A DNA stretch of 64,000 bases. It comes from Opitutales bacterium (GTDB lineage: Bacteria; Verrucomicrobiota; Verrucomicrobiia; Opitutales; UBA9783). The notes under the pieces were generated by a model. It did no database searches. It saw only the letters and a program-made list of their open reading frames with translations, and was not told the origin of the DNA. Both the position numbers and the translations under genes were made by a program. The stretch is taken from positions 238-64,237 of the forward strand of contig JBKSMP010000021.1 of the NCBI GenBank assembly GCA_046881885.1, read 5' to 3'. Of this stretch, positions 138 to 55,145 are shown one piece after another (within the stretch, counting starts at the first letter, position 1; the number at the start of each line of letters is the position of its first letter).

Positions 138-299
138 TATTATGCATGTTTTCAAAATATCTAAAAATTCTATAGCGAACAAGTTTGGCCTTGCGAACTT
201 GCTTCGATGTAGACCAAAAACCGTTTTTGGGTTTTTCCTTTGGAAAATTACTGCAGCCAAGTGTTCATTTTAAAGGCCTTGATAACTGAAATCTGCTAA

Positions 300-783: not shown

Positions 784-1245
784 ATGGAAGGTGGGATTGA
801 CAATCAGGTAGAACCTAAGTCTAAGTTTTCGAAGCGCCAACGGCAGCGGCAGTGTATTGTAGAATGTCTTTATATGTGGGAAATGCAGCGGGATTTGCCA
901 GTGGAAGAGTTGTTTGCTGCTTATTGTGAGGAAAAGCGTGAGAACGTAGAAGAAGAGGTTTTACAAGCAGATTTTGTTTTAGATAGTTTAAAGGGCGTTT
1001 CAAATTATTCTGACGTTTTAGATGAAAAAATTCGTAATTGTGCAAAAAACTGGTCTTTTTCGCGCATTGCTAAAATGGATTTGGCAATTTTACGTTTAGC
1101 TATTTATGAGCTCTTTTTTGTAAAAACACCAGCTCCGATTGTCATCAATGAAGCAGTAGAATTGAGCAAAATTTACTCTTCAGATGATGCAAAACGCTTT
1201 ATTAATGGTATTTTAGATTATTTGTCGAAGGAAGCTGTGAAATGA
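784..1245 (+). CDS. nusB: Transcription antitermination factor NusB
   Basis: 153-aa ORF with a NusB-like core (WSFSRIAKMDLAILRLAIYELFF ... PAPIVINEAVELSKIYSSDDAKRFINGILD). It overlaps ftsY by an ATGA. Confidence 0.9.
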   Translation: MEGGIDNQVEPKSKFSKRQRQRQCIVECLYMWEMQRDLPVEELFAAYCEEKRENVEEEVLQADFVLDSLKGVSNYSDVLDEKIRNCAKNWSFSRIAKMDLAILRLAIYELFFVKTPAPIVINEAVELSKIYSSDDAKRFINGILDYLSKEAVK

Positions 1246-4629: not shown

Positions 4630-7162
4630 TTTAACTCCAAAAGCACAACAAGTATTTGTACTAGCAAAGAAGGTTGTTTTAGATTTAAAGCAGAAATGTT
4701 TAGGAACAGATCATTTACTTCTGGGCTTGCTTGAACTGAGACAGGGAATTGCAGTGCGTGTTTTAGAACGCTTAGGCCTTGATATCGAAACGGTTCATGA
4801 TGCTTTAAAACAACATATTGCTTCAGAAAAGAATAAAACCGAAGGTTTTGTACAAGGCGAAGCAAAGGAGGAAGTTATTTTAACTCCACGTGTTCGTAAA
4901 GTTCTTACATTAGCAGAACAAAAAGCAAAAGAATTGCGTCATGCTTATATTGGAACTGAACACCTGCTTCTTGGGTTACTTGCAGAAGGTAAAGGTTTGG
5001 GAGCAAAGATTTTAAAAACGCTCGATATTGATCCTCAAGAATGTTGTCAGGAAATTCTGTCGGAATTAATTCCAGGGGATAACGATGATGACGATGATAT
5101 GGACTTTGATGACGATGAGGATGACGTATTTTCTGATGATGAAAGTTTTTCAGAAGATCCTTTTGGGGTAAGTCGTGGAGAAAATCGCGTACAAATCTTA
5201 AAGAATTTTGGTACTAATTTAACCTTAAAAGCGCAAAAAAATGAACTCGATCCGGTTATTGGCCGTGAACGAGAGATTGAACGTTTGATTCAAATTTTAT
5301 GTCGCCGGACTAAGAATAATCCTGTGCTTATTGGTGAGGCTGGTGTTGGAAAAACAGCGGTTGTTGAAGGATTAGCACAACGTATTGTTAATGGGAAAGT
5401 TCCTGATTTGTTGTTAGGAAAGTGTATTTTCAGCCTAGATTTGGCTTTGCTACTTTCAGGAACCAAATACCGCGGACAATTTGAAGAACGTTTAAAGCGT
5501 TTGATGGAAGAACTAAGAGATTCCAATGTTATTTTATTTTTAGATGAATTGCATACCATTGTTGGTGCTGGATCGGCTGAAGGTTCTATGGATGCCTCTA
5601 ATATTTTGAAGCCTGCATTGGCTCGTGGACAAATTCAGTGCATTGGGGCAACTACTTTGAGCGAGTATCGCAAGTATATTGAAAAGGATACAGCTCTCAA
5701 TCGGCGTTTTCAATCCGTTTTGGTAGAACAACCTTCGTCTTCGGAAACTTTAAAGATTTTGGAAGGTTTAAAGCTGCGTTATGAGGAATTTCATAGCGTA
5801 CATTATTCAGAATCCATTTTGAAGCAATCCGTTGGGCTAACACAACGCTATATTACCGATCGTTGTTTCCCTGATAAAGCTATTGATTTGTTGGATGAAG
5901 CAGGTGCACGTACACGTATTTTGGGAATGGATGAAGCCCCTTCTACAGCTTCATTAGACAAAGCGATTTCAGCAGCAAAAGATAAGAAAACAGCAGCTAT
6001 TTATTCACAGCAATTTGAAGAAGCTGCACGTTGGAGAGACGAAGAACGAGCGCTGATGGATGAGCGTGACGAGCTTATTCAATCTTGGCGTAAGCAAAAC
6101 CGTAATCAACGCGTTCCTGTTAAGGAAGAGACTTTGCAACGTATTATCTTTGATTGGACAGGTGTACCTTTGGAGCGTATGGGTGCAAAAGAAACGCAAC
6201 GTTACTTGAATTTGGACAAAATTCTTTCAAAGGAAGTTATTGGACAAACAGAAGCGGTACAAGTTGTTGCACGTGCCTTAAAGCGTTCTCGAGCGGATTT
6301 GAAAGATCCTCGTAGACCTATTGGTTCGTTCTTATTTTTAGGCCCGACAGGTGTGGGAAAAACCCATTTGGTCAAAATCTTGGCCGAGCAAGTTTATGGT
6401 AGCCGCGATGCTGTTGTTCAAATTGATATGTCTGAATATATGGAAAAGCATACCGTTTCCCGTTTGATTGGTTCCCCTCCAGGTTATATTGGACATGAAG
6501 AAGGCGGACAATTGACTGAAGTTATTCGTCGTAAGCCTTATGCACTTGTTCTTTTCGATGAAATAGAAAAGGCTCATCCAGACGTTATTCAAATTCTCCT
6601 ACAAGTTTTAGAAGAAGGGCGTTTAACGGATAGCTTAGGTCGTGTGGTTGATTTTAAAAATACAATCATTGTCATGACTTCCAATGTAGGAGCGCAAGAA
6701 TTGCAGCGTTCTGTGGGCTTAGGATTTGGTATTACTTCTGCAGAAATGGCTTTTGAACAACTAAAGGCTAATGTTCAATCGGCTATGAAAAATACTTTTT
6801 CGCCAGAATTTCTGAATCGTATCAATGATATTGTTATCTTCCGATCGTTGGATCGCGAACATATGCAGAAAATTGTTGATTTAGAATTAAAAGCAGTTAG
6901 CCAGAGATTGCAGAAACATAGCATTCGCTTACATTTAGGAGAAACTGCTAAGCAATTCTTAATCCAGAAAGGGTTTGATGCCAAATTAGGTGCGCGTCCT
7001 CTTAAACGTGCAATTGAACGGTATGTAGAAGACTTGCTGGCAGATGCACTATTAGCAAAAAAAATAAAGTCAGGTCAAAGGATTAATTTGGAAGTTGACA
7101 AAAAACATGACGAATTAATGTTGAAAAAAACTTCGAAATTATGTATAAAAGTTAATATATAA
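4619..7162 (+). CDS. clpC: ATP-dependent Clp protease ATP-binding subunit ClpC
   Basis: Two Clp_N repeats, Walker A GEAGVGKTA and GPTGVGKTH, a UVR-like M-domain (QQFEEAARWRDEE), and VLFDEIEKAHPDV. An unusual poly-Asp/Glu insertion lies after the N-domain. Confidence 0.95.
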   Translation: MLHNLTPKAQQVFVLAKKVVLDLKQKCLGTDHLLLGLLELRQGIAVRVLERLGLDIETVHDALKQHIASEKNKTEGFVQGEAKEEVILTPRVRKVLTLAEQKAKELRHAYIGTEHLLLGLLAEGKGLGAKILKTLDIDPQECCQEILSELIPGDNDDDDDMDFDDDEDDVFSDDESFSEDPFGVSRGENRVQILKNFGTNLTLKAQKNELDPVIGREREIERLIQILCRRTKNNPVLIGEAGVGKTAVVEGLAQRIVNGKVPDLLLGKCIFSLDLALLLSGTKYRGQFEERLKRLMEELRDSNVILFLDELHTIVGAGSAEGSMDASNILKPALARGQIQCIGATTLSEYRKYIEKDTALNRRFQSVLVEQPSSSETLKILEGLKLRYEEFHSVHYSESILKQSVGLTQRYITDRCFPDKAIDLLDEAGARTRILGMDEAPSTASLDKAISAAKDKKTAAIYSQQFEEAARWRDEERALMDERDELIQSWRKQNRNQRVPVKEETLQRIIFDWTGVPLERMGAKETQRYLNLDKILSKEVIGQTEAVQVVARALKRSRADLKDPRRPIGSFLFLGPTGVGKTHLVKILAEQVYGSRDAVVQIDMSEYMEKHTVSRLIGSPPGYIGHEEGGQLTEVIRRKPYALVLFDEIEKAHPDVIQILLQVLEEGRLTDSLGRVVDFKNTIIVMTSNVGAQELQRSVGLGFGITSAEMAFEQLKANVQSAMKNTFSPEFLNRINDIVIFRSLDREHMQKIVDLELKAVSQRLQKHSIRLHLGETAKQFLIQKGFDAKLGARPLKRAIERYVEDLLADALLAKKIKSGQRINLEVDKKHDELMLKKTSKLCIKVNI

Positions 7163-32578: not shown

Positions 32579-33571
32579 CTATTGCTTTAAAGAATTACGA
32601 ATAACCGAAGAATCAAATATCGATTCAAAGGGTGCATTATATTCCAAATGGTTATGCACTAACATTTCTGTTTTTATATTTTCCATCAAATCCAAAACAT
32701 AACGATTGTTACAAATCAATGAAATTTGTTCACTAAGCGGAAGTGCATGTATTGTCCTTAAAGGGGCATAATAATCAGGTAAATTCATAAAATTTACTGG
32801 AGAATGATAATGAGCATATTCACGTTTATAAACAGATAAAATTTCATCCCATTTGCCAATAAATCGACTTAAATGTTTACGAAAAACTCTCAATTTTCCT
32901 TGCTGTATCAACAATACATTAAGCTTCATTTCTCGTGGCCATTCTTCTGTAGAATAAATAGAATGTAAACCGTTCTCTAAAACTTTCAAATCATTAATAA
33001 AGGGCCAATAAGTTACTACACAATCGACTTTTTCAGTTTGTAAAAAAGTTAAATGAGCAGTGGGATCAATAGGAACAATCTCAATATCCTGTAATGTTAA
33101 TCCCTGTGTTTTTAAAGCACGACAAAGTGCATAATTACTGAAAGAATTAATCTCAACCCCTACCCGCTTCCCTTTTAAATCCTTTATCGATTTTATAGTA
33201 GAACGTGCCATTAAATCCCATGAAAATTGTGTTCTATCATAAGACGTAAATAAAATAATTTTGGAATCATAATTACCGCTCTTACATTGCATAACCATCG
33301 CATCTACAAATGGGCAAATCATTGCATCTATTTGCTGCCATTCAAATGCTTGCTGAACATCTTGCAAAGAACCAAATTCAACAAACCTTACTCGCAAACC
33401 CGCTTTTTCAAAATATTTTTGCTCTAAAGCAATTTGTAAATATTCCGATCCTGAATGAGCATTAATCCCTATTTTAAATGCAGGCTTATATTCAACATAC
33501 TGAATAATCCAACAAGCCCCGATGCTTAATGCAAAAAAAATTATCGCAATTAAAAACTCCTTATAGCGCAC
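32579..33571 (-). CDS. Membrane-anchored periplasmic substrate-binding-protein-like protein (NMT1/NitT/TauT-type fold, inferred)
   Basis: N-terminal TM anchor, then an SBP-like pattern (FKIGINAHSGSEYLQIALEQKYFEKAGL.V.FVEFGS..DVQQAF...IDA). Its stop abuts the sensor-kinase start with zero spacing. Confidence 0.65.
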   Translation of the reverse strand: MRYKEFLIAIIFFALSIGACWIIQYVEYKPAFKIGINAHSGSEYLQIALEQKYFEKAGLRVRFVEFGSLQDVQQAFEWQQIDAMICPFVDAMVMQCKSGNYDSKIILFTSYDRTQFSWDLMARSTIKSIKDLKGKRVGVEINSFSNYALCRALKTQGLTLQDIEIVPIDPTAHLTFLQTEKVDCVVTYWPFINDLKVLENGLHSIYSTEEWPREMKLNVLLIQQGKLRVFRKHLSRFIGKWDEILSVYKREYAHYHSPVNFMNLPDYYAPLRTIHALPLSEQISLICNNRYVLDLMENIKTEMLVHNHLEYNAPFESIFDSSVIRNSLKQ

Positions 33572-34224: not shown

Positions 34225-35748
34225 ATGAATACTAAAACAAATGAACCTGAGTTTTCTAAATTGAGAAGAATTTTCTTCCCAATTCATAGTTATGAATTGA
34301 AGAAAGCAATTCCTATGGGAATGATTTTTTTCTTCATTTTATTCAATTATACCTGCTTAAGGAATATTAAAGACTCGCTTATTGTTACGAATACTGGAGC
34401 AGAAGCATTGGCTTATTTGAAGTTGTTTTGCGTAACACCATCCGCAATCATTTTCATGCTCTTGTACGCTAAAGCAAGTAATATTTTGAGTAATGAAAAC
34501 CTATTTTACGCAACTTTATCGCCATTTATTTTATTCTTTGGCTTGTTTGCGTTCGTTATTTACCCAAATCGCGAATGGTTTCATCCAACCGTTGAAACAA
34601 TTACCGCTTTGCAAGCTCAATTCCCAACATTGTATTGGCCTTTAGCCTTATGTGGTGTTTGGAGTTATGCTATTTTCTACGTTTTGGCAGAACTTTGGGG
34701 AAGTGCATTGATTTCCTTGTCTTTCTGGCAGTTTGCTAACCAAATTACACGCGTTTCTGAAGCTAAACGTATGTATGCCTTCTTCGGTTTGATGGCTCAA
34801 ATTTCACTTTTGTTAGCTGGTGTTTTCGGAGACTATTTTTCCAATGTTAAGAATGTTGCAGAAGGTGTTGATCCTTGGCAAATTTCTCTTAATTGGTTGA
34901 TGAGTATCGTTGTTATTTTCGGTATTGCAACCATGGCTATCTACAAATGGATCTACAAAAACGTTTTAACTGATAAGCGTTTCTATGACAAACCAGAATT
35001 GCCAGGTGTTAAAAAAGGTAAGAAAAAAGCAGGTCTTATCCAAAGCTTGAAGACCATCTTCACCTCTCCTTATCTCGGTTTAATTGCTATGTTGATCATC
35101 TGCTATGGTATTAGCGTAAACTTAATCGAAGGTCTTTGGAAAAGCCAATTAAAGTTGCAATATGCAAATGAAAACGATTACAACACCTTTATGAGTCGCT
35201 TTACTATTTGGACCGGCGTTGCTTCTATGGTTATGTTGATCGTTGGTGGAAATGTTTTACGTGTTTGCCGTTGGGTTGTAGCCGCATTAGCAACTCCGCT
35301 TGTATTCCTCATTGGTGGTTTCACATTCTTCTCGTTCATCGTATTCCGTCAAGAATTGGGAGAAATTGTTGCCAACATGGGAACCAATCCAGTTGCTGTT
35401 GCCGTTATCTTGGGTGCCATCATCGTTGTTGCAGCAAAGTCCACAAAATATGCTTTGTTTGACTTAACCAAGGAAATGGCTTACATTCCTCTCGATGAAG
35501 AAATGAAAGTAAAAGGTAAAGCTGTTGTCGACGTTGTTGGTGGACGTCTTGGTAAATCCGGTGGTGCATTTATTCAAGTCGTACTATTCTCTGCAGTCAG
35601 CAGCATTATTGGTATGAAAGCAACTTATTACCAAATCGTACCTTACTTGTTTGCTCTTTTCATTCTTATTTGCATATTATGGATCTTATCTGTAAAGGCT
35701 CTTGGCAAACGTGTTGAAGCAGCCAATGCAGCAGCGAATGAAAAATAA
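34225..35748 (+). CDS. tlc: ADP/ATP (nucleotide) translocase, Tlc/Ntt family
   Basis: 507-aa 12-TM protein with the characteristic N-terminus FSKLRRIFFPIHSYELKKAIPMGMIFFFILFNYTCLRNIKDSLIVT and KYALFDLTKEMAYIPLDEE.K.KGKA.VDVVGGRLGKSGGA. Confidence 0.93.
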   Translation: MNTKTNEPEFSKLRRIFFPIHSYELKKAIPMGMIFFFILFNYTCLRNIKDSLIVTNTGAEALAYLKLFCVTPSAIIFMLLYAKASNILSNENLFYATLSPFILFFGLFAFVIYPNREWFHPTVETITALQAQFPTLYWPLALCGVWSYAIFYVLAELWGSALISLSFWQFANQITRVSEAKRMYAFFGLMAQISLLLAGVFGDYFSNVKNVAEGVDPWQISLNWLMSIVVIFGIATMAIYKWIYKNVLTDKRFYDKPELPGVKKGKKKAGLIQSLKTIFTSPYLGLIAMLIICYGISVNLIEGLWKSQLKLQYANENDYNTFMSRFTIWTGVASMVMLIVGGNVLRVCRWVVAALATPLVFLIGGFTFFSFIVFRQELGEIVANMGTNPVAVAVILGAIIVVAAKSTKYALFDLTKEMAYIPLDEEMKVKGKAVVDVVGGRLGKSGGAFIQVVLFSAVSSIIGMKATYYQIVPYLFALFILICILWILSVKALGKRVEAANAAANEK

Positions 35749-47165: not shown

Positions 47166-47775
47166 AACCATCGAACTGTTTACGCGATATCCGCAATTAG
47201 AAGTTTGCCGTAATGCAATTGGTGATGTTTTTGCTATTTTATGCAAAACATTTGCGGGAAAAGGGAAGTTACTTATTGCCGGTAATGGTGGTAGTGCTTC
47301 AGACGCAGACCATATTGCTGGAGAGTTATTGAAGGCCTTTAAAGGCCCACATACCCTTACGGAGCCTTCTTTACCTCAAGATTTGGCCCTTCACTTACAG
47401 CACGCATTACCTGTCATTCCACTGCCTAATTTAAGCGGAATTTTAACGGCTTATAGCAACGATTGCGAGCCTGATTGGGCTTTTGCACAATTGGTTTGGG
47501 GATTGGGACAAACCGGTGATTGTTTCTTAGCACTAAGTACTTCCGGAAATTCCAAAAACATTTTAAATGCCGCTAAAGTAGCTCGAGCAAAAGGAATGTC
47601 AGTCATTGGATTAACAGGACAAAATGGAGGTACATTAAAGTCGCTATGTGATTGCTGTATCTGTGTTCCAGAAGAAGAAACTTTTAAAATTCAAGAATTA
47701 CATTTGCCCATTTATCACAACTTGTGTTTAGGTCTAGAGGAACATTTCTGGGGTAAAAAACCTGAAAATGCTTAA
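47143..47775 (+). CDS. gmhA: D-sedoheptulose-7-phosphate isomerase (SIS domain)
   Basis: LIAGNGGSASDADHIAGEL ... LSTSGNSKNIL.A...A...G..VIGLTG..GG. Confidence 0.85.
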   Translation: MRIMQNSRTIELFTRYPQLEVCRNAIGDVFAILCKTFAGKGKLLIAGNGGSASDADHIAGELLKAFKGPHTLTEPSLPQDLALHLQHALPVIPLPNLSGILTAYSNDCEPDWAFAQLVWGLGQTGDCFLALSTSGNSKNILNAAKVARAKGMSVIGLTGQNGGTLKSLCDCCICVPEEETFKIQELHLPIYHNLCLGLEEHFWGKKPENA

Positions 47776-48451
47776 CGGCTTCCAACAAAATTTACCTGCA
47801 CATGTTTTGGATTTTTGTAAGAAAATTCATGAAAATGGCGGAGAAGCTTGGATTGTTGGTGGTTGGGTACGTGATTGTTTTCTGAAAGAGAAATCGGTCT
47901 CGGATGTTGATATCGAGGTTTTTGGATTATCTTACGATGCATTAAAAATACTTTGTAAACCCATCTGTAAAACGGAATTTCCAAAATTTGGTATCTTCAA
48001 ATGTGAAGGTATGGATCTTTCTTTGCCACGAATAGAATACTGCATTGGGAAACGTTATAATAGCTTCAAAACCATTTTGTTACCACATTTATCTTTTCGT
48101 AAAGCTGCATTACGTAGAGATTTTACCATCAATACACTTGCTTGGAATCCGATAAGGTATGAATTACGCGACCCATTTCATGGAGTGAATGCCATAAAAA
48201 CGAAACGATTGTATCCTATCAGCAAACGTTTTACAGAAGATGCTTATCGTGTTTTGCGGGCAGCACAATTGATTGCACGATTTGGATTTGTTCCAACAAA
48301 ACCATTGATCTACTTGAGTTTAAAGATAAAATCTCCTATTTTGTCACAAGCCCACATAAAGCGTACGCTTGATTGCCTACATACCGCTCCTTATTCAAAT
48401 ACTGCCTGGCAATTCTTGGAACAAATTCATTGGGATAGGTTTTTAAGTTAA
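47768..48451 (+). CDS. Class II tRNA nucleotidyltransferase/poly(A) polymerase family protein, short form (head and neck only)
   Basis: GGEAWIVGGWVRDCFL....SDVDIEV and RRDFTINTLA. At 227 aa it is much shorter than full-length CCA-adding enzymes, which I recall being around 400 aa. Confidence 0.7.
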   Translation: MLNGFQQNLPAHVLDFCKKIHENGGEAWIVGGWVRDCFLKEKSVSDVDIEVFGLSYDALKILCKPICKTEFPKFGIFKCEGMDLSLPRIEYCIGKRYNSFKTILLPHLSFRKAALRRDFTINTLAWNPIRYELRDPFHGVNAIKTKRLYPISKRFTEDAYRVLRAAQLIARFGFVPTKPLIYLSLKIKSPILSQAHIKRTLDCLHTAPYSNTAWQFLEQIHWDRFLS

Positions 48452-48542: not shown

Positions 48543-50150
48543 TTATTCCAAATAAATACAATCGTAAGGGTGCCAATCGAGCAAATTGGTATGCCAATTT
48601 TGAACAGAAGGATGCACCAAATGCGACGTAGCGCTTGAATGAAGTGGCAACAAAGGAACTTCATCCAAAATAAGAGCTTCTGCTTTCTGTAAAGTATGCA
48701 TACGTTCTGAAACATCGTTCATGTTTGCGGCAGTATCTAACAAATGATCAAATACGTCGTTATGCCAATACGTGTAGTTGTTATAACTATTACTACGCCA
48801 TAAATCGAGAAAGGTCGTTGGATCATTATAATCGCCAACCCAGCCACCACGTGCAATTTCGAAATTTTTCTCACGACGTCGATTTAAATATACTTTCCAT
48901 TCCAAATTGATCGTTTCCACATCGATATTAAGTTCTTTTTTCCACATTTCTTGAATTGCAGAAGCAAGATACATTTGTCCTTCAGTTGTGTTAAAAATGA
49001 GCGATAATTTAGGGAAATTTTGACCATTCGGATAACCCGCTTCCGCTAATAACTTTCGAGCAAGATCTGCATCTTCTTCAATAGGATTAATACAGTGAAA
49101 ACCACAACAACCTTCAGGAACCAACTGAAAAGCCGAACGATGTTTAATACAAAAAAGGTCATTCCCCATTAAAGCATCGCGATGCAATGCCAGATTAAGT
49201 GCTTTACGAACACGGACATCGTCCAATGGTTTTATTTTTGTATTAAAGATATAATAAAACGTTCCAAGATAAGGATGGATTTTTAACTGTTCATCTTTTT
49301 TCTGGTAATATTCCTTTATTTTAGAATAAGGAACATTTTCCGTAATATGCAATTGTCCACGCCTAAAAGCACGCTCCTCAGTAGCATGATCACTAATCGG
49401 CTTGAAAACAATACCATTAAGCTTTACGCATGATTCGTTCCAATACAATTTATTTTTAGCAAGCTCAATTTTTTCACCCACTTTCCAGTGTTTAAGCACA
49501 AAAGGCCCATTACCAACAAAATCTTGTACACGCGTCCAAGTAGGATCTCGTGTAAATTCTCCATTACAACGTTTTAGCGTCTCACGATGAACCGGATAAG
49601 CTGCAGCTTGCATCAAGAGGGAAAGAAAGTAAGCCGTTGGACTTTCCAAAGTAAATTCTAAGGTTAAAGCATCAAGTACTTTAATACCAACCTTGTCAAA
49701 TGAGAGTTCATTGTTATAAAACTGTTTCGCATTTTTAATCACAAAAAAAGAAGTAGCTCCGGAAGCGCCAACAGCAGGTGTAAGCAAACGCTGAAATGAA
49801 AACAAAAAGTCTTCTGCTTCTATTTTATCGCCATTACTCCAAGTAGCATTTGGCCGCAAATAAAATGTATAACGTAAACCATCTGTACTTACTGTCCATC
49901 GCTCTGCCACACCTGGTTCTGGTTCCAAAGTCTTTGGATGTGGCTTAACTAAACCTTCAAAAAGAGACCTAAGTACATTTTGTTCGGTAACTCCTGAAAT
50001 ACAATGTGGATCTAGGCCTTCTGGATCAGGGCCTATACCAACAAGCAGGATACCATCACGATAAGCACGTTGAACTTCTGTTTCTTTTTTAGAGCATCCC
50101 AAAAGTCCCAAAAGACTTACGAGAACAATGTAAACCAATTTAATTTGCAT
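48543..50150 (-). CDS. oppA: ABC transporter substrate-binding lipoprotein, family 5 (oligopeptide/dipeptide type)
   Basis: Lipobox LLGLLGC; SBP_bac_5-like length and blocks (GPFVLKHWKVGEKIELAKNKLYWN). Confidence 0.85.
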   Translation of the reverse strand: MQIKLVYIVLVSLLGLLGCSKKETEVQRAYRDGILLVGIGPDPEGLDPHCISGVTEQNVLRSLFEGLVKPHPKTLEPEPGVAERWTVSTDGLRYTFYLRPNATWSNGDKIEAEDFLFSFQRLLTPAVGASGATSFFVIKNAKQFYNNELSFDKVGIKVLDALTLEFTLESPTAYFLSLLMQAAAYPVHRETLKRCNGEFTRDPTWTRVQDFVGNGPFVLKHWKVGEKIELAKNKLYWNESCVKLNGIVFKPISDHATEERAFRRGQLHITENVPYSKIKEYYQKKDEQLKIHPYLGTFYYIFNTKIKPLDDVRVRKALNLALHRDALMGNDLFCIKHRSAFQLVPEGCCGFHCINPIEEDADLARKLLAEAGYPNGQNFPKLSLIFNTTEGQMYLASAIQEMWKKELNIDVETINLEWKVYLNRRREKNFEIARGGWVGDYNDPTTFLDLWRSNSYNNYTYWHNDVFDHLLDTAANMNDVSERMHTLQKAEALILDEVPLLPLHSSATSHLVHPSVQNWHTNLLDWHPYDCIYLE

Positions 50151-51623
50151 CTAGTTTCAATAGTTTTACAGCTGCCAATACACGCTCTTTAACTTCATGA
50201 AAATTTCCTTTGGCGTCAATGGTTACAAAAGGCATCTTGCCTTTTAAGCTTTGTAATGCTGTGAAAGTTTCTTGCATAAAAATTTGATAACGTTGACGAG
50301 CGATTTCTGGATCTAAGTCAGTTTGACGAACCTCTTGCAAAACACCTTGGCCCGACTTGAGAATACGTTCATTATGTTCTTTAGCGCGTTCTCCACGATA
50401 CAATTGACGACGAACACTTTCATCCTCATCCAAAGTTAACACAATGACAGAAAACAAAGGATGGTAACCTTTTTCCTTCAAAGCACGATAAAGTCGATAA
50501 ATACTATAAACTTGCTCTTGGGTCCTTGGAAATCCATCAACGACAACACCATCTTTATAAATAGGATCTTGCAAAGCATTGAATACAGAAGAAATGACAG
50601 TAGCATCATCCAAAAGCACTCCACGATTAATTTTCTCACGCATCTCTGGAGTATTGAACAAACTACTTGCAATTAATGGATTGGGACATAAATGTCCATA
50701 TTCAATAATATAACGCTCATTTGTACCTTTTCCTGCGCCTGGTGCTCCACTTAACCAAACAATCTTATTGGGAATGCTTTCCAAGCTAATGGAATCTATT
50801 AAAAGAGATTGTTCGGAATTCTCTGAAATACAATGCGGATCTAGACTTTCTGAATCAGCGCCCGTACCTATAAAAAGGATACCATCACGATGAACCTCTT
50901 GAATTTTCGCTGCTTTTTTGGAGCATCCCAAAAGTCCCAAAAAGCTTACAAGCACAATATAAACAAGTTTATTTTTCATTTTTCGTCTAATTTCAATAAT
51001 TTTACAGCTGCCAATACACGCTCTTTAACTTCACGCAAACTTCCATTACTATCAATGGTTATAAAGGGCATCTTACCTTTTAAACTTTGCAATGCAACAA
51101 ACGTCTCTTGCATAAAAATTTGATAACGTTGACGAGCAATTTCTGGATCTAAATCCGTTGGTCGCACCTCTTTCAAAACCCCTTGTCCGGTCTTACGTAT
51201 ACGTGCATTATATTCTTTAGCACGTTCTCCACGATACAATTGACGACGGACACTTTCTTCCTCATCTAAAGTCAAAACAATCACAGAAAACAAGGGATTG
51301 TAACTTTTTTCCTGCATTGCACGATAAAGCCAATAAATGCTATAAGCTTGCCCTTGAGTCCTTGGAAATCCATCAACCACTAATCCATCCTCATAAATTG
51401 GATCTTGCAAGCCACTAAATACAGAAGAAATAACGGTAGCATCATCTAGAAGCAGCCCACGATTAATTTTTTCACGCATCTCTGGACTATTGAGCAAACT
51501 ACTTGCGATCAAAGGACTCGGATATAAATGTCCATACTCAATGATATAACGCTCGTTAGTACCTTTCCCTGCACCCGGTGCTCCGCTTAACCAAACTATC
51601 TTATTGGGAATGCTTTCCAACAA
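49971..51623 (-). repeat. Tandem duplication, two units of roughly 830-840 nt
   Basis: Unit 1 is about 50800..51623 and unit 2 about 49971..50784. Each unit holds the kinase core plus the first ~180 nt of an oppA-type leader. For example, TTGGGACTTTTGGGATGCTC is identical in both leaders. Confidence 0.85.
50140..50979 (-). CDS. Chimeric protein: OppA-type lipoprotein leader (about 60 aa) fused to an adenylate-kinase-family P-loop kinase
   Basis: Residues 1-60 (MKNKLVYIVLVSFLGLLGCSKK...RDGILFIGTGADSESLDPHCISENSEQSLL) parallel OppA residues 1-60. From LESIPNKIVWLSGAPGAGKGT onward the sequence parallels the upstream kinase paralog. The ORF is intact. Confidence 0.8.
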   Translation of the reverse strand: MKNKLVYIVLVSFLGLLGCSKKAAKIQEVHRDGILFIGTGADSESLDPHCISENSEQSLLIDSISLESIPNKIVWLSGAPGAGKGTNERYIIEYGHLCPNPLIASSLFNTPEMREKINRGVLLDDATVISSVFNALQDPIYKDGVVVDGFPRTQEQVYSIYRLYRALKEKGYHPLFSVIVLTLDEDESVRRQLYRGERAKEHNERILKSGQGVLQEVRQTDLDPEIARQRYQIFMQETFTALQSLKGKMPFVTIDAKGNFHEVKERVLAAVKLLKLDAN

Positions 51624-51677
51624 ATGACCATCCGTGTCTAATTTTTTTAAAAAAGAGTCTAACTGTTGTGCTTCCAT
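50976..51677 (-). CDS. Adenylate-kinase-family nucleoside monophosphate kinase-like protein (cytoplasmic paralog)
   Basis: P-loop GAPGAGKGT, VVDGFPRTQGQ, and Arg-rich LID-like and C-terminal segments (RRQLYRGERAKE, RPTDLDPEIARQRY). It has no signal peptide. Confidence 0.8.
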   Translation of the reverse strand: MEAQQLDSFLKKLDTDGHLLESIPNKIVWLSGAPGAGKGTNERYIIEYGHLYPSPLIASSLLNSPEMREKINRGLLLDDATVISSVFSGLQDPIYEDGLVVDGFPRTQGQAYSIYWLYRAMQEKSYNPLFSVIVLTLDEEESVRRQLYRGERAKEYNARIRKTGQGVLKEVRPTDLDPEIARQRYQIFMQETFVALQSLKGKMPFITIDSNGSLREVKERVLAAVKLLKLDEK

Positions 51678-51749: not shown

Positions 51750-52574
51750 TTATAAAAAATAATTTCTTTGACGTTCCGAAATTGGCATTTGCAAAAATTC
51801 CATTACCTTCAACATATCTTCCCAAACAATACGTTTTGAAGCATTTGTAGCGTTTCGAAGCAGATAAGATGGATGATAAGTAATCATCAAAGGAACACCA
51901 TTGAATTCAAACCAATTACCACGACAATCCCGCATACGTCTTTGAGAATCATGTCCAAGTAAGCCACTAACAGCCGTTGCGCCTAAAGCCACAATAACTT
52001 TAGGTTTTACAATATTCAATTGCCCTTTCAAATATGGCAAGCAAAACTGCATTTCCTCTTGTGTCGGCGGACGATTTCCAATGTGATTCGGCGTTTCTGG
52101 CCGCCAATTCATAATGTTTCCAATATAAACATCAGAACGTTTCAGCCCCATTGCTTCAATGATTTTTGTAAGCAACTGCCCTGCTCTTCCGACAAATACC
52201 TCACCTTGCTCTTCTTCGTCCGCTCCAGGCGCTTCTCCACAAAAAAAGATATCTGCATCCAAATTTCCACTGCCAAACACAAGCTTTTTGCCTGGATACA
52301 AATGCTTCAAACAATGCGGACAGGTTAAAACACGCTGCTTAAGCCACTTCCATTGTTCTTCTTTTGTCCCTTCGGGTAAAGTAAAAGCTTCAGGTTGTTC
52401 CATTTTACTTTCGACTTGCATGACTTCAATTCCTTCCACTTCATGATCTTCCTCTATGTGCGAGGCTTGCAAATACTGCTTTAAAACGTCCGGATTGAGT
52501 GGAAAATGGACCTCTCCTAAAGCTTTTTGTGCTTTCAAAATCGTCTTTAACAAATCCTGTATGGGATCCGTCAT
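51750..52574 (-). CDS. Uracil-DNA glycosylase, family 4
   Basis: GEAPGADEEEQGEVFVGRAGQLL motif, upstream Cys residues (CPHC) and HPSYLLRN. Confidence 0.88.
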   Translation of the reverse strand: MTDPIQDLLKTILKAQKALGEVHFPLNPDVLKQYLQASHIEEDHEVEGIEVMQVESKMEQPEAFTLPEGTKEEQWKWLKQRVLTCPHCLKHLYPGKKLVFGSGNLDADIFFCGEAPGADEEEQGEVFVGRAGQLLTKIIEAMGLKRSDVYIGNIMNWRPETPNHIGNRPPTQEEMQFCLPYLKGQLNIVKPKVIVALGATAVSGLLGHDSQRRMRDCRGNWFEFNGVPLMITYHPSYLLRNATNASKRIVWEDMLKVMEFLQMPISERQRNYFL

Positions 52575-53770
52575 GCATTCAACAAATGCTTTATAGGACG
52601 TTGAGCTTCAACATCTGCATCGTAATCGATACCCGCACATTCAAAGCCAAACAACTGCAAGAAGTTTTCTTGATAACCATCAAAATCACTCAATTGATGC
52701 AAATTTTCCGTGTTTATCTTCGCCCAAATCGCTTGTACTTCTTCTTGCACTTCTGGAAGTAGTTCACGATCGTCTAAACGAACACAGGTTTCACGATCTT
52801 GCTGCAAAGGAACTTTATGATCAAACAAGCCTGCAAACAAACGATAAATTTGCTCAATACAATCTTCATGCAAGCCCTTCTCTTTCATCACTTTAAACAG
52901 GACGGAATTGTATAAAGGAACAACTGGAATGGCAGAACTTGCTTGAGTTACAACCGCCTTATTTACCGAAATAAGCGCACGACCTTGGAGCTTTTCCTGC
53001 AGGAATTGATTCAATTTTTCAGCAGTTTGCGCGAGATGTTCCTTAGCACGACCAATCGTTCCCGACTTGTAAATCGGCCAAGTAACTTCAGGACCAATAT
53101 AAGAATAAGCTATCGTACTTGCTCCTTTTTCCAATAAATTTTCTGCAACCAAAAGCTGGATCCATTCTTCCCAATCTTCACCTCCCATAACCTTGACCGT
53201 TTGAAAAACATCGTCTTCGGTAGCCGGTTCTAAAGATGTTTCATAGACTTCACCTTTATCGGTATTAACAGTTTTGCTCGTAAATGTCTGCCCAACTGGT
53301 TTTAAAACAGATTTGTACATATTGCCATCTTTATCGGTACGACGCGGTGCTGCCAAACTGTAAATAACACAATCAACGCTTCCCATTTTTTCGCGCAGTT
53401 CACGAACAACTTGAGCCTTAAAATCTGCCGAAAAAGCATCACCATTCATCGAATAGGCCTTTAAACCTTGAACCTCAGCAGCTTTTTCAAAAGCAACCGT
53501 ATTGTACCATCCTGGAGAAGCAGGTTTGGTATCATCCCCTGGTCTCTCAAAAAATACACCAAAAGTATCAGCTTTACCTCCCATTGCACTTACAATACGA
53601 CTGGCAAGTCCATAACCCGTTGAAGCTCCCAAAATAAGTACGCGCTTCGGCGCCTTTTCAAAAGCTCCTTGTTGCAAAACATACTCCACTTGCTTATTTA
53701 CTTGAGCTTCACAACCATCTGGATGGGCTGTAATACATATAAATCCTCGAACTCTCGGTTTTATGATCAT
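52571..53770 (-). CDS. fabV: Enoyl-[acyl-carrier-protein] reductase FabV (trans-2-enoyl-CoA reductase family)
   Basis: MIIKPRVRGFICITAHPDGCEAQV ... ILGASTGYGLASRI, a characteristic FabV/TER N-terminus. Confidence 0.92.
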   Translation of the reverse strand: MIIKPRVRGFICITAHPDGCEAQVNKQVEYVLQQGAFEKAPKRVLILGASTGYGLASRIVSAMGGKADTFGVFFERPGDDTKPASPGWYNTVAFEKAAEVQGLKAYSMNGDAFSADFKAQVVRELREKMGSVDCVIYSLAAPRRTDKDGNMYKSVLKPVGQTFTSKTVNTDKGEVYETSLEPATEDDVFQTVKVMGGEDWEEWIQLLVAENLLEKGASTIAYSYIGPEVTWPIYKSGTIGRAKEHLAQTAEKLNQFLQEKLQGRALISVNKAVVTQASSAIPVVPLYNSVLFKVMKEKGLHEDCIEQIYRLFAGLFDHKVPLQQDRETCVRLDDRELLPEVQEEVQAIWAKINTENLHQLSDFDGYQENFLQLFGFECAGIDYDADVEAQRPIKHLLNA

Positions 53771-54155: not shown

Positions 54156-55145
54156 ATGAAAGTAAATAAAATTTTACATCTGGTAGGTGGTGCTTGTTTA
54201 TTTTTACAAGGTTGTGAAACTTTGCATTTCAAAAGCAACGATAAAGAAACAAGTAACTTGAATGAAAAAAGTACGTTAATTGCTTCAGAAGCTGAAGAAA
54301 CTGAACAAGCGGTTTCTGTTCACGAGTTAGAAGCAACAACGCAATTAAGCAAGCAACACTTTCGTGCTCAACCCCGTCGTCCTATTTTAGAAAAACAAAT
54401 CGACGAAGTTGTAGAAGACGATTCTCAATCAGATGCAAAAGCCACATCGTATACAGTCCAAAAAGGTGATACCTTATACAAAATTGCTAAAAAATTTAAT
54501 GTAACTGTTGCAAAATTGGTACAAGTTAACAATTTAAATGACCGGAATCGTTTGTCCATTGGAATGGAATTGATAATCCCTAATGGAACAAACAGTTTCT
54601 CCACAACACCTACTCATGTTTATGTGGTTCAAAAAGGTGATACCTTAACCTCTATAGCCAACCGCTTTCAAACAACAATTGCTGCACTTAAGCAAAATAA
54701 CAAACTGACGAAAGATACGATTTATAGTGGGCAAAAGCTCTACGTTAATGGTACTGCAGAAGCGCAACCTTCTTCAAAAGAATCAAGTTCTAGCTTACCC
54801 CCTATAGACACTGAAAAGTATGTTGTAAAAGCAGGTGATGTGCTTTACAATATTGCTAAACGTTGCCGGATGACCGTCCAAGAATTAATGCAAATCAATA
54901 ACATCCAGGATCCTAAAGCTTTACAAATTGGACAAGTGCTTTATTTAAAGAAAACGATCACACCAGATCCTGTATCACCTATAGAAAATGCGTCCTCATC
55001 CCAGATAGAACCTCAACCAGAAGTTGTTTTGGCAGAGCCTACACCTGTTCCACAAAACTCTTCTATGGTTGAAGAAGATAATTTCGAAGATCTTTTTGAA
55101 GAAGGAAACGACATTCCAGTTGTTCCTTTAGAAGATATCAAATAA
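54156..55145 (+). CDS. Lipoprotein with three LysM domains and an acidic C-terminal tail (no peptidase domain)
   Basis: Lipobox LFLQGC. LysM 1 is YTVQKGDTLYKIAKKFNVTVAKLVQVNNL; LysM 2 is YVVQKGDTLTSIANRFQTTIAALKQNNKL; LysM 3 is YVVKAGDVLYNIAKRCRMTVQELMQINNI. The stop abuts the ftsW start. Confidence 0.85.
   Translation: MKVNKILHLVGGACLFLQGCETLHFKSNDKETSNLNEKSTLIASEAEETEQAVSVHELEATTQLSKQHFRAQPRRPILEKQIDEVVEDDSQSDAKATSYTVQKGDTLYKIAKKFNVTVAKLVQVNNLNDRNRLSIGMELIIPNGTNSFSTTPTHVYVVQKGDTLTSIANRFQTTIAALKQNNKLTKDTIYSGQKLYVNGTAEAQPSSKESSSSLPPIDTEKYVVKAGDVLYNIAKRCRMTVQELMQINNIQDPKALQIGQVLYLKKTITPDPVSPIENASSSQIEPQPEVVLAEPTPVPQNSSMVEEDNFEDLFEEGNDIPVVPLEDIK

Follow-up and report, generated by a model that had tools for sequence, protein, structure and literature searches.

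The DNA analysed here, referred to as the window, comprises 64,000 nucleotides (nt) of a metagenome-assembled genome (MAG) of an Opitutales bacterium (GCA_046881885.1, JBKSMP010000021.1, positions 238-64,237). This account concerns three co-directional, overlapping genes on its minus strand: a kinase gene, a chimeric gene in which the leader of an OppA-like lipoprotein is joined to a second copy of the kinase, and the oppA-like gene itself. The three reading frames had been recognised in a first-pass annotation of the same DNA, and their coordinates and sequences were found to be as described there. The kinase and chimera genes overlap by 4 nt (ATGA), and the chimera and oppA-like genes by 11 nt. 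In the following, L001, L003, L006 and so on are labels of the related loci compared, and P0001 and so on are protein labels; the chimera is P0001, an Opitutales MAG protein at NCBI (100% match). Lengths of proteins are given in amino acids (aa) and NMP stands for nucleoside monophosphate.

50976..51677, minus strand: parental kinase, 233 aa, ADK/NMP-kinase fold, without leader (open reading frame (ORF) and Pfam ADK).
50140..50979, minus strand: chimera, 279 aa, consisting of OppA leader, tether and kinase core (ORF; ortholog in L001).
48543..50150, minus strand: oppA-like lipoprotein gene, 535 aa, SBP_bac_5, donor of the leader (Pfam, E 9e-92).

Local alignment of 51620..50809 with 50784..49980 gave 681 identical positions in 813 columns (83.8%) at a period of 836 base pairs (bp), the gaps being one 7-nt indel at the gene junction and one 1-nt gap pair near the end. 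Similarity of this degree is far beyond chance. The first-pass annotation had proposed that the leader and kinase blocks be aligned separately; this gave 39 of 60 identical amino acids for the leader and 182 of 214 (85%) for the kinase. The ratio of nonsynonymous to synonymous divergence (dN/dS) of the paralogous kinase blocks was 0.113 (0.07-0.18), which is too low for either copy to have been evolving neutrally. The repeat units are direct, they meet in one new in-frame joint, and the parental gene on each side is complete, which is the pattern of a fusion gene born by tandem duplication.

50809..51620, minus strand: repeat unit copy 1, made up of kinase codons 20-233, the junction and the chimera leader (local alignment, 83.8% to copy 2).
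49980..50784, minus strand: repeat unit copy 2, made up of the chimera kinase core, the junction and the oppA leader (local alignment; compare the 836 bp absent from L018).
50785..50799, minus strand: chimera codons 61-65 (IDSIS), the novel duplication joint, without significant similarity to either parent.
50971..50984, minus strand: 7-nt tandem repeat GAAAAAT-GAAAAAT in the kinase/chimera junction (junction comparison).

The OppA residues in the chimera are 1-60 only, and no SBP_bac_5 match was found in it by Pfam. The five residues IDSIS had been described in the first-pass annotation as a unique junction, with the breakpoint at about kinase codon 19. The joint does exist, but since 60, 5 and 214 residues make up the 279 aa of the chimera, IDSIS adds no length, and the breakpoint is resolved no more finely than kinase codons 15-20 and oppA codons 60-65. 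The IDSIS codons stem from one parent or the other and correspond, in diverged form, to kinase codons 15-19 or to OppA codons 61-65; the orthologous chimera at L001 has GDSVK in their place. The difference between the 4-nt and 11-nt overlaps, also noticed earlier, comes from the 7-nt repeat. The junction of the unduplicated loci L003, L007, L011 and L012 reads GATGCAAATTAA (...D-A-N-stop / M-Q-I-K), which is the ancestral form, and the window has it at the chimera/oppA boundary. At the kinase/chimera boundary the 7-nt repeat, which is found in the same junction of L001 as well, turned the 11-nt ancestral overlap into the 4-nt ATGA overlap.

The unduplicated state was found in relatives. In L003, L007-L010, L011, L012 and L019 the order is FabV-UDG-kinase (233 aa)-OppA (535-537 aa) with the 11-nt overlap, and L018, which lies on a short contig, shows the UDG-kinase-oppA part of the same locus. 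Compared with the window, L018 lacks exactly 836 bp, corresponding to window 50154..50989. Over the aligned kinase core, the parental kinase of the window is 90-92.5% identical in amino acids to the kinases of the unduplicated loci. FabV and UDG genes precede the kinase in every related locus that reaches far enough upstream, including the distant clade of L006 and L014, and in the window they are located as follows.

51750..52574, minus strand: UDG-family gene, upstream context (Pfam).
52571..53770, minus strand: FabV-type enoyl reductase gene, upstream context (Pfam).

Collectively, these sequence comparisons support an origin of the chimera by tandem duplication, as had been predicted together with an unduplicated kinase-oppA state, which was found here with the same upstream genes and overlap. 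The prediction had been framed for Chlamydiae, and this part was wrong, the DNA belonging to an Opitutales MAG (Verrucomicrobiota). In a scan of species-representative genomes, the kinase family occurred only in Opitutales, Puniceicoccales and Verrucomicrobia MAGs; the samples came from human (Hadza), horse faeces, yak and roe-deer rumen, and apparently also from chicken and termite guts. The 11-nt kinase/oppA overlap is kept in L003, L007, L011, L012, L018 and L019 (window equivalent, 50140..50150). Such conservation would imply that translation of a cytoplasmic kinase and of a lipoprotein has long been coupled, and the functional reason is not obvious.

An ortholog of the chimera allowed selection to be assessed. 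In L001 a kinase fragment, a 279-aa chimera (P0002) and oppA stand in this order, and P0002 shares 85% identity with its counterpart in the window. P0002 is encoded on L002 too; L001 comes from an ENA assembly and L002 from a Logan assembly, and both may derive from one sample. For the one chimera pair on which the ortholog tests rest (window versus L001), dN/dS was 0.136 over the whole gene and 0.074 (bootstrap 0.04-0.13) at a dS of 0.73 over the kinase core, codons 66-279, in which 214 codons are free of stops and frameshifts. Over the OppA-derived codons 23-65 it was 0.71, as against 0.027 for codons 23-60 of the real OppA genes of the two loci and 0.061 for oppA as a whole. The tether differs between the two chimeras at 12 of 38 residues and between the real OppA proteins at 2 of 38 (Fisher P = 0.006). 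A family alignment of 25 members has 51 invariant columns, those of the P-loop among them, and neither chimera departs from any of these. In the kinase tree the two chimeras group together (100% bootstrap) on a long stem branch, which arises from among the kinases of loci without the duplication. Of 30 derived nucleotide states that could be polarised, 22 are common to both chimeras, and none of the 22 occurs in L018. These substitution patterns show strong purifying selection on the kinase core of the chimera and relaxed constraint on its OppA-derived segment. The earlier suggestion that the chimera has been retained, and is not debris, is thus borne out by the L001 ortholog, by its kinase-core dN/dS and by the intact invariant residues and P-loop. 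Two short segments of L001 deserve mention beside these results: at 1056..1096 its oppA start reads MKNKLVY, like the chimera leader, versus the ancestral MQIK, and at 222..262 its chimera ends in LDEK, like kinase copy 1. They suggest that gene conversion may have taken place between the repeat copies in the L001 lineage.

50140..50784, minus strand: chimera codons 66-279 and stop, the complete kinase core (85% aa identity to the parental copy; predicted local distance difference test (pLDDT) 90-97).

The window comes from a MAG, and L018, taken from a co-assembly, is without the chimera, which is what strain mixing or a mis-join of two haplotypes during metagenome assembly might produce. However, the repeat copies differ at 16% of positions in a coding-type pattern (dN/dS 0.11), beyond strain-level differences, and the three-gene order with a 279-aa chimera was assembled separately in L001 and L002, the L001 chimera being only 85% identical to that of the window. 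On account of this coding-type divergence and of the separate assemblies, an assembly artefact was rejected, and we regard its probability as negligible.

The kinase domain was characterised by motif and by fold. Pfam ADK (PF00406) scored 40.2 bits for the parental kinase and 39.7 bits for the chimera (gathering cut-off, 26.8). The P-loop GAPGAGKGT is present in both window copies, and GxPGxGKGT is invariant or nearly so (G35, >90%) among the 25 aligned members. Invariant motifs across the family are the P-loop, DGFPRT-x-x-Q, the LID arginines and R-x-T-D-L-D; within DGFPRT, RxxxR and RxTDLD, the residues R106, R145, R149, R172, D175 and R184 are invariant and D177 is nearly invariant. Their equivalence to E. 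coli R88, R123, R156, D158/D159 and R167 was set by motif and not by structural superposition. The AlphaFold2 (AF2) model of the parental kinase (pLDDT 92.1) shows the three-domain NMP-kinase fold of core, NMP-binding domain and LID. Its top Foldseek matches in the PDB (1uky, 2c95 and 5xz2) reached a probability of 1.0 and a target-normalised TM score of 0.74-0.79 at 18-26% identity, and the best PDB sequence matches were all adenylate kinases (E ~1e-8), the best of these being AK2-type. A longer version of the kinase, 405 aa, occurs in free-living Opitutales (Coraliomargarita, Lentimonas and Ruficoccus; P0035, P0074 and about 100 other matches); it carries an extra C-terminal region of about 150 residues without a Pfam match, which the gut clade has lost.

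The chimera begins with a lipoprotein-type leader.

50923..50979, minus strand: lipoprotein signal peptide, chimera codons 1-19, lipobox L-L-G-C with Cys19 (conforms to PROSITE PS51257).
50800..50922, minus strand: former mature OppA N-terminus, chimera codons 20-60, a relaxed and probably disordered tether (dN/dS, pLDDT).

PROSITE PS51257 looks for a basic n-region, an uncharged hydrophobic core and a lipobox [LVI][ASTVI][GAS]C with the cysteine at positions 15-35. The leader reads MKNK-LVYIVLVSFLG-LLG-C19; the n-region MKNK is basic, the hydrophobic core, some 14 residues long, carries no charge (mean Kyte-Doolittle value, 2.66), and the lipobox is LLGC. Both chimeras and all six OppA orthologs checked conform to the rule; in the window as in L001, chimera and OppA have one and the same lipobox, and five of the six orthologs keep Cys19 and a lipobox ending in G-C, the exception being L003 (Cys18). 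Four of the 49 large ORFs of the window conform; besides the chimera and the oppA-like gene these are 54156..55145 (plus strand), with three LysM domains, and 32579..33571 (minus strand), an NMT1/THI5-like binding protein. The signal peptides of the window and L001 chimeras differ at four positions, all conservatively (V/I, V/A, F/L and K/R). The AF2 model of the chimera has pLDDT <50 at residues 1-50 and 90-97 in the kinase core, a modelled picture of leader, flexible tether and intact enzyme. From these features we infer that the chimera would be exported by Sec, lipidated at Cys19 and tethered in the periplasm. The lipid-anchored, exported product envisaged by the first-pass annotation fits the sequence, with the PROSITE lipobox and Cys19 present in both chimeras.

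A second leader-kinase fusion was found in a separate lineage. L006 (GCA_024407725.1, JAKSVZ010000010.1; horse faeces) has the order FabV-UDG-kinase (221 aa)-kinase (246 aa)-MFS-MFS. Its relatives L014 and L015 are unduplicated (5001..6892), with FabV-UDG-kinase (220 aa)-MFS-MFS, and the L006/L014 clade is deeply separated within the kinase family (100% bootstrap).

L006 5309..6741: tandem kinases including the MFS-leader fusion P0030 (local repeat and comparison with relatives).

The repeat copies in L006, 5315..6063 and 6082..6835, are 81.6% identical over 755 columns and run from kinase codon 3 to MFS codon 21. The 246-aa protein (P0030) consists of MFS residues 1-21, that is, the first hydrophobic segment at the start of transmembrane segment 1 (TM1), followed by the whole kinase. 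The captured segment has changed from MHYGWVVLCVVTLLEGLSGFG to MHYKKLILLGAIMFQGLCGFG, with 16.5 nonsynonymous differences in 20 codons versus 3 between MFS orthologs; it gained a basic KK n-region and lost a Glu inside the hydrophobic core, both changes being towards a signal peptide. The two kinase cores of L006 show a dN/dS of 0.074 at a dS of 0.95. This independent fusion with a different donor suggests selection for a kinase copy outside the cytoplasm. In a third lineage, P0121 (295 aa; L036 241..1128, CAZDSI010000054.1) begins with the signal-like sequence MKSMLKRLQKIIFVKAFMGLSFILNLQAGG and has a low-complexity linker some 50 residues long. The gene is non-tandem, with a plain 236-aa copy on L027 of the same MAG. 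Among distant family members, P0137 has a lipobox (LLAVGC) and several have classic signal-like N-termini; a crude rule flagged 10 of 135 screened sequences for a leader, including both chimeras and P0030. The leader-like distant members from metagenomes are P0137, P0143, P0145, P0198, P0219, P0231 and P0301. Exported kinase forms may thus be a wider theme, and some of the distant members may be eukaryotic.

The best explanation, which we hold to be probable, is that the duplication gave rise to an exported and tethered kinase while the parental copy kept its cytoplasmic job. In a gut-associated Opitutales lineage, a cytoplasmic kinase gene stood directly upstream of an oppA-like gene, with the 11-nt overlap. 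A tandem duplication of about 829 bp, with endpoints in kinase codons 15-20 and oppA codons 60-65, produced a third, in-frame gene. It encodes the signal peptide of OppA up to the lipobox and Cys19, then some 45 residues from the former OppA N-terminus, and finally the whole kinase core. Its product would leave the cytoplasm through Sec, receive its lipid from the Lgt/LspA pathway and be kept by the flexible tether at a membrane face in the periplasm. As a phosphotransferase it would there use nucleotides that enter this compartment, and the parental kinase would retain its role in the cytoplasm.

Several findings weigh against this reading, and they are considered here together with the alternatives on which they bear. 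The first group concerns the active site. The canonical AMP-site motif S/T-G-D-x-x-R, with the equivalent of Arg36, is not found in the kinase; the aligned segment is Y-P-S-P-L-I-A, and the family consensus PLIASSLL stands in place of the motif throughout the family. The protein was therefore filed as an ADK-fold phosphotransferase with unassigned NMP specificity rather than as a bona fide adenylate kinase. In addition, 13 derived replacements are common to both chimeras. Two of these, L62F and W116R/Q, fall at positions invariant in 23 of 23 other aligned members; L62F lies inside the ASSLL motif, and A111V adjoins the invariant Gln110 of DGFPRTxxQA. The shared replacements could have adapted the enzyme to a different compartment, made up for the N-terminal helix that was lost, or altered the substrate. 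Given the replaced AMP-site motif and the changes at invariant residues, the substrate of the chimera, and even catalysis by it, appear uncertain. The exported protein might accordingly have been re-purposed, for example to bind nucleotides or phosphate in the periplasm or to phosphorylate a substrate other than a nucleotide; the family-wide lack of the motif with its arginine, the replacements L62F, A111V and W116R/Q and the long chimera stem would all agree with this. However, the P-loop lysine, the DGFPR arginine, the LID arginines and the TDLD aspartates are all kept, which is sensible only if phosphotransfer is maintained, and the L006 fusion is without such substitutions. We consider re-purposing rather unlikely.

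The second group concerns location. The periplasm is normally thought to be without ATP, and ATP-dependent enzymes are unusual there. Taken by itself, conservation of the signal peptide was not separable from that of the tether (4 of 22 versus 15 of 43 differences, P = 0.25), and this comparison does not count as evidence for export. The TTG codon of Leu66 stands at the start of the kinase core. A functional chimera might not be periplasmic at all, either because the uncleaved leader serves as a membrane hold or because an internal start at this TTG yields a leaderless cytoplasmic kinase. This is opposed by the layout of the leader, which is that of a standard Sec lipoprotein; its core, some 14 residues long, does not reach the length of a stable membrane anchor, and its orientation would in any case place the kinase domain outside. 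An unused leader should decay like the tether, yet its four substitutions are all conservative, and no Shine-Dalgarno-like sequence precedes Leu66. The L006 segment, with its gained KK and lost internal Glu, evolved towards a signal peptide as well. A chimera that works in the cytoplasm or on an uncleaved leader is accordingly judged unlikely, and the duplication-born, exported kinase is preferred.

The third group concerns the necessity of the gene. Amino-acid changes are about twofold more numerous in the chimera than in the parental copy, and the chimera is absent from L018 (CAZIZB010000112.1) and L019 (CAZOPT010000012.1), which branch between the two carriers. The oppA tree was (((window, L018), L019), L001) with 100% support at each node, and the UDG tree, made without an L001 sequence, was ((window, L018), L019), also with 100% support. 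L018 is 95-97% identical to the window in nucleotides on both flanks. The absence of the chimera from L018 and L019 makes the fusion dispensable or accessory, and its history requires at least two losses or lateral exchange. Lineages whose flanking genes are 88-97% identical differ in whether they have the chimera. The first-pass annotation had foreseen neither this absence from close relatives nor the recurrence in L006.

The age of the fusion was estimated from dS. Distances to L003 were saturated, and a dS matrix was used instead of a dS-based neighbour-joining tree. Over the 214 codons of the kinase domain, dS between the chimera and the parental-type kinases of the window, L018 and L019 was 0.64-0.73. 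Between the window and L001 it was 0.73-0.79 (chimera orthologs, window kinase versus L001 chimera, the C-terminal 80 kinase codons and oppA). Kinase-domain dS was 0.54-0.71 for the window or L018 versus L019 and 0.22 for the window versus L018, and values for the window kinase or chimera versus L011, L007 and L012 were at least 1.0. This pattern places the origin of the fusion, at a dS of about 0.65-0.75, about at the base of the clade of the window, L018, L019 and L001, after the split from L011, L007 and L012 and close to that between the window and L001 (0.64-0.75).

51000..51033 and its partner 50164..50197, minus strand: longest run of perfect identity between the repeat copies, 34 nt (run-length scan).

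Either two losses, lateral exchange or a long-lived presence/absence polymorphism would account for the distribution. No recombination tract indicating lateral import was seen between the window and L018, where identity is uniform at 92-98% up to both junctions, and these sequences fit loss and lateral exchange alike. Within the 34-nt run, just upstream of the junction, a crossover would probably excise the chimera precisely; it would remove one unit and leave no chimera-derived sequence, which is the structure of L018. An argument that the clean structure of L018 is improbable by deletion, based on an apparent crossover interval of 4 nt, was dropped because the two informative sites on either side were altered in the window chimera alone and the 34-nt run lies exactly there.

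The chimera could be a functionless by-product of an unstable tandem duplication, persisting by chance and in the course of being lost. Its absence from the close relatives L018 and L019, the ease of precise loss at the 34-nt run and the roughly doubled number of amino-acid changes, some of them at residues invariant elsewhere, are what such a by-product would show. Against it stand the ortholog dN/dS of 0.074 at a dS of 0.73 across 214 codons without stop or frameshift, the retention of every invariant family residue and the intact lipobox in both lineages. The independent L006 fusion is likewise constrained, and relaxation is confined to the OppA-derived segment, as functional re-use predicts. 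The by-product explanation is strongly disfavoured, and we consider it very unlikely. The fusion is selected where present, but dispensable.

The window also encodes a Tlc-family nucleotide transporter, which the first-pass annotation had placed at 34225.

34225..35748, plus strand: Tlc-family nucleotide transporter (Pfam PF03219 TLC, E 7.3e-183, full-length match).

A Tlc protein is unexpected in a gut Opitutales MAG, outside the classic intracellular lineages, and it is a hint that the organism may scavenge nucleotides or may live inside other cells or as an epibiont. The NMT1/THI5-like gene stands some 650 bp upstream of tlc and is read in the opposite direction. Cooperation of the chimera with Tlc is speculative and is suggested by analogy. 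We give little credence to the broader proposal that gut Opitutales, at least twice and perhaps three or more times, built a tethered periplasmic nucleotide kinase by means of the leader of a downstream gene and paired it with Tlc, in the manner of AK2 and the ADP/ATP carrier. If this pairing were true, host-derived or exported ADP could, for example, be converted into importable ATP and AMP, which would raise the yield of energy parasitism.

The kinase shares with the adenylate kinase/UMP-CMP kinase family (PF00406; 1ake, E. coli Adk; 2c95, human AK1; 1uky, yeast uridylate kinase) the fold, the P-loop, DGFPRT-x-x-Q, the LID arginines and R-x-T-D-L-D. It differs in being 18-26% identical, in its replaced AMP-site motif and in an extra N-terminal helix, and the chimera differs further in bearing a lipoprotein leader. 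We know of no characterised Adk with such a leader.

Nucleotide kinases outside the cytoplasm are known from other organisms. Pseudomonas aeruginosa and Burkholderia cepacia are described as secreting adenylate kinase and Ndk (Markaryan et al. 2001, as cited in PMC4141199). As far as that citing source describes them, these enzymes likewise act outside the cytoplasm, on host-derived adenine nucleotides. The chimera, by comparison, is a separate, diverged paralog with an encoded Sec/lipoprotein signal and would stay cell-bound. The secreted Adk and Ndk are released housekeeping enzymes and are not known to have a dedicated signal peptide or a separate gene. A further likeness is offered by the AK2 of the mitochondrial intermembrane space (2c9y, 1ak2) and by AK2 of Plasmodium falciparum (PfAK2), which is N-acylated and translocated to the parasitophorous vacuole (PMC4409355; PDB 3tlx). 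In both cases a second AK isoform works just outside a membrane with an ATP/ADP carrier, and PfAK2 is lipid-anchored through its N-terminus, as is predicted for the chimera. These are eukaryotic proteins, however, with other targeting (N-myristoylation/palmitoylation and import into the intermembrane space), and the likeness to a Tlc-chimera pair would be one of analogy. In Mycoplasma hominis, OppA is described as a surface lipoprotein with ecto-ATPase activity (PMC2323007), that is, a lipid-anchored, OppA-related surface protein that would handle extracellular host ATP. According to that description the ATPase resides in OppA itself, whereas the chimera uses only the first 60 OppA residues, as leader and tether.

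Tandem duplication across a gene boundary, which joins the 5' end of a downstream gene to the 3' part of an upstream one, is the same mechanism as that of the chimera. Compared with the usual genes formed in this way, the payload here is an export signal that would retarget an enzyme, and the event occurred twice at one locus, with the OppA lipoprotein signal and MFS TM1 as donors. Tandem-duplication fusion genes and nucleotide kinases outside the cytoplasm are both known kinds; their combination by capture of an export signal is what is new here, and it is unusual. A limited literature search found no description of bacterial signal-peptide capture by tandem duplication, and nothing directly relevant on periplasmic or signal-peptide-bearing bacterial adenylate kinases or on Tlc in Opitutales. 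The locus offers a well-documented natural example of how an enzyme can be moved to a new compartment in one mutational step with both parental genes intact, and the relatives sampled show the locus before duplication, the fusion that resulted, how it was refined afterwards and how it was lost again. If the product is a periplasmic nucleotide kinase beside Tlc, this would suggest a new element of nucleotide or energy scavenging in host-associated Verrucomicrobia.

As for the surroundings of oppA, no oppBCDF permease genes adjoin it in the window, and the OppA-like binding protein is an orphan. Downstream of it, on the opposite strand, 47768..48451 (plus strand) encodes a 227-aa protein consisting only of a poly(A) polymerase/CCA-adding head domain.

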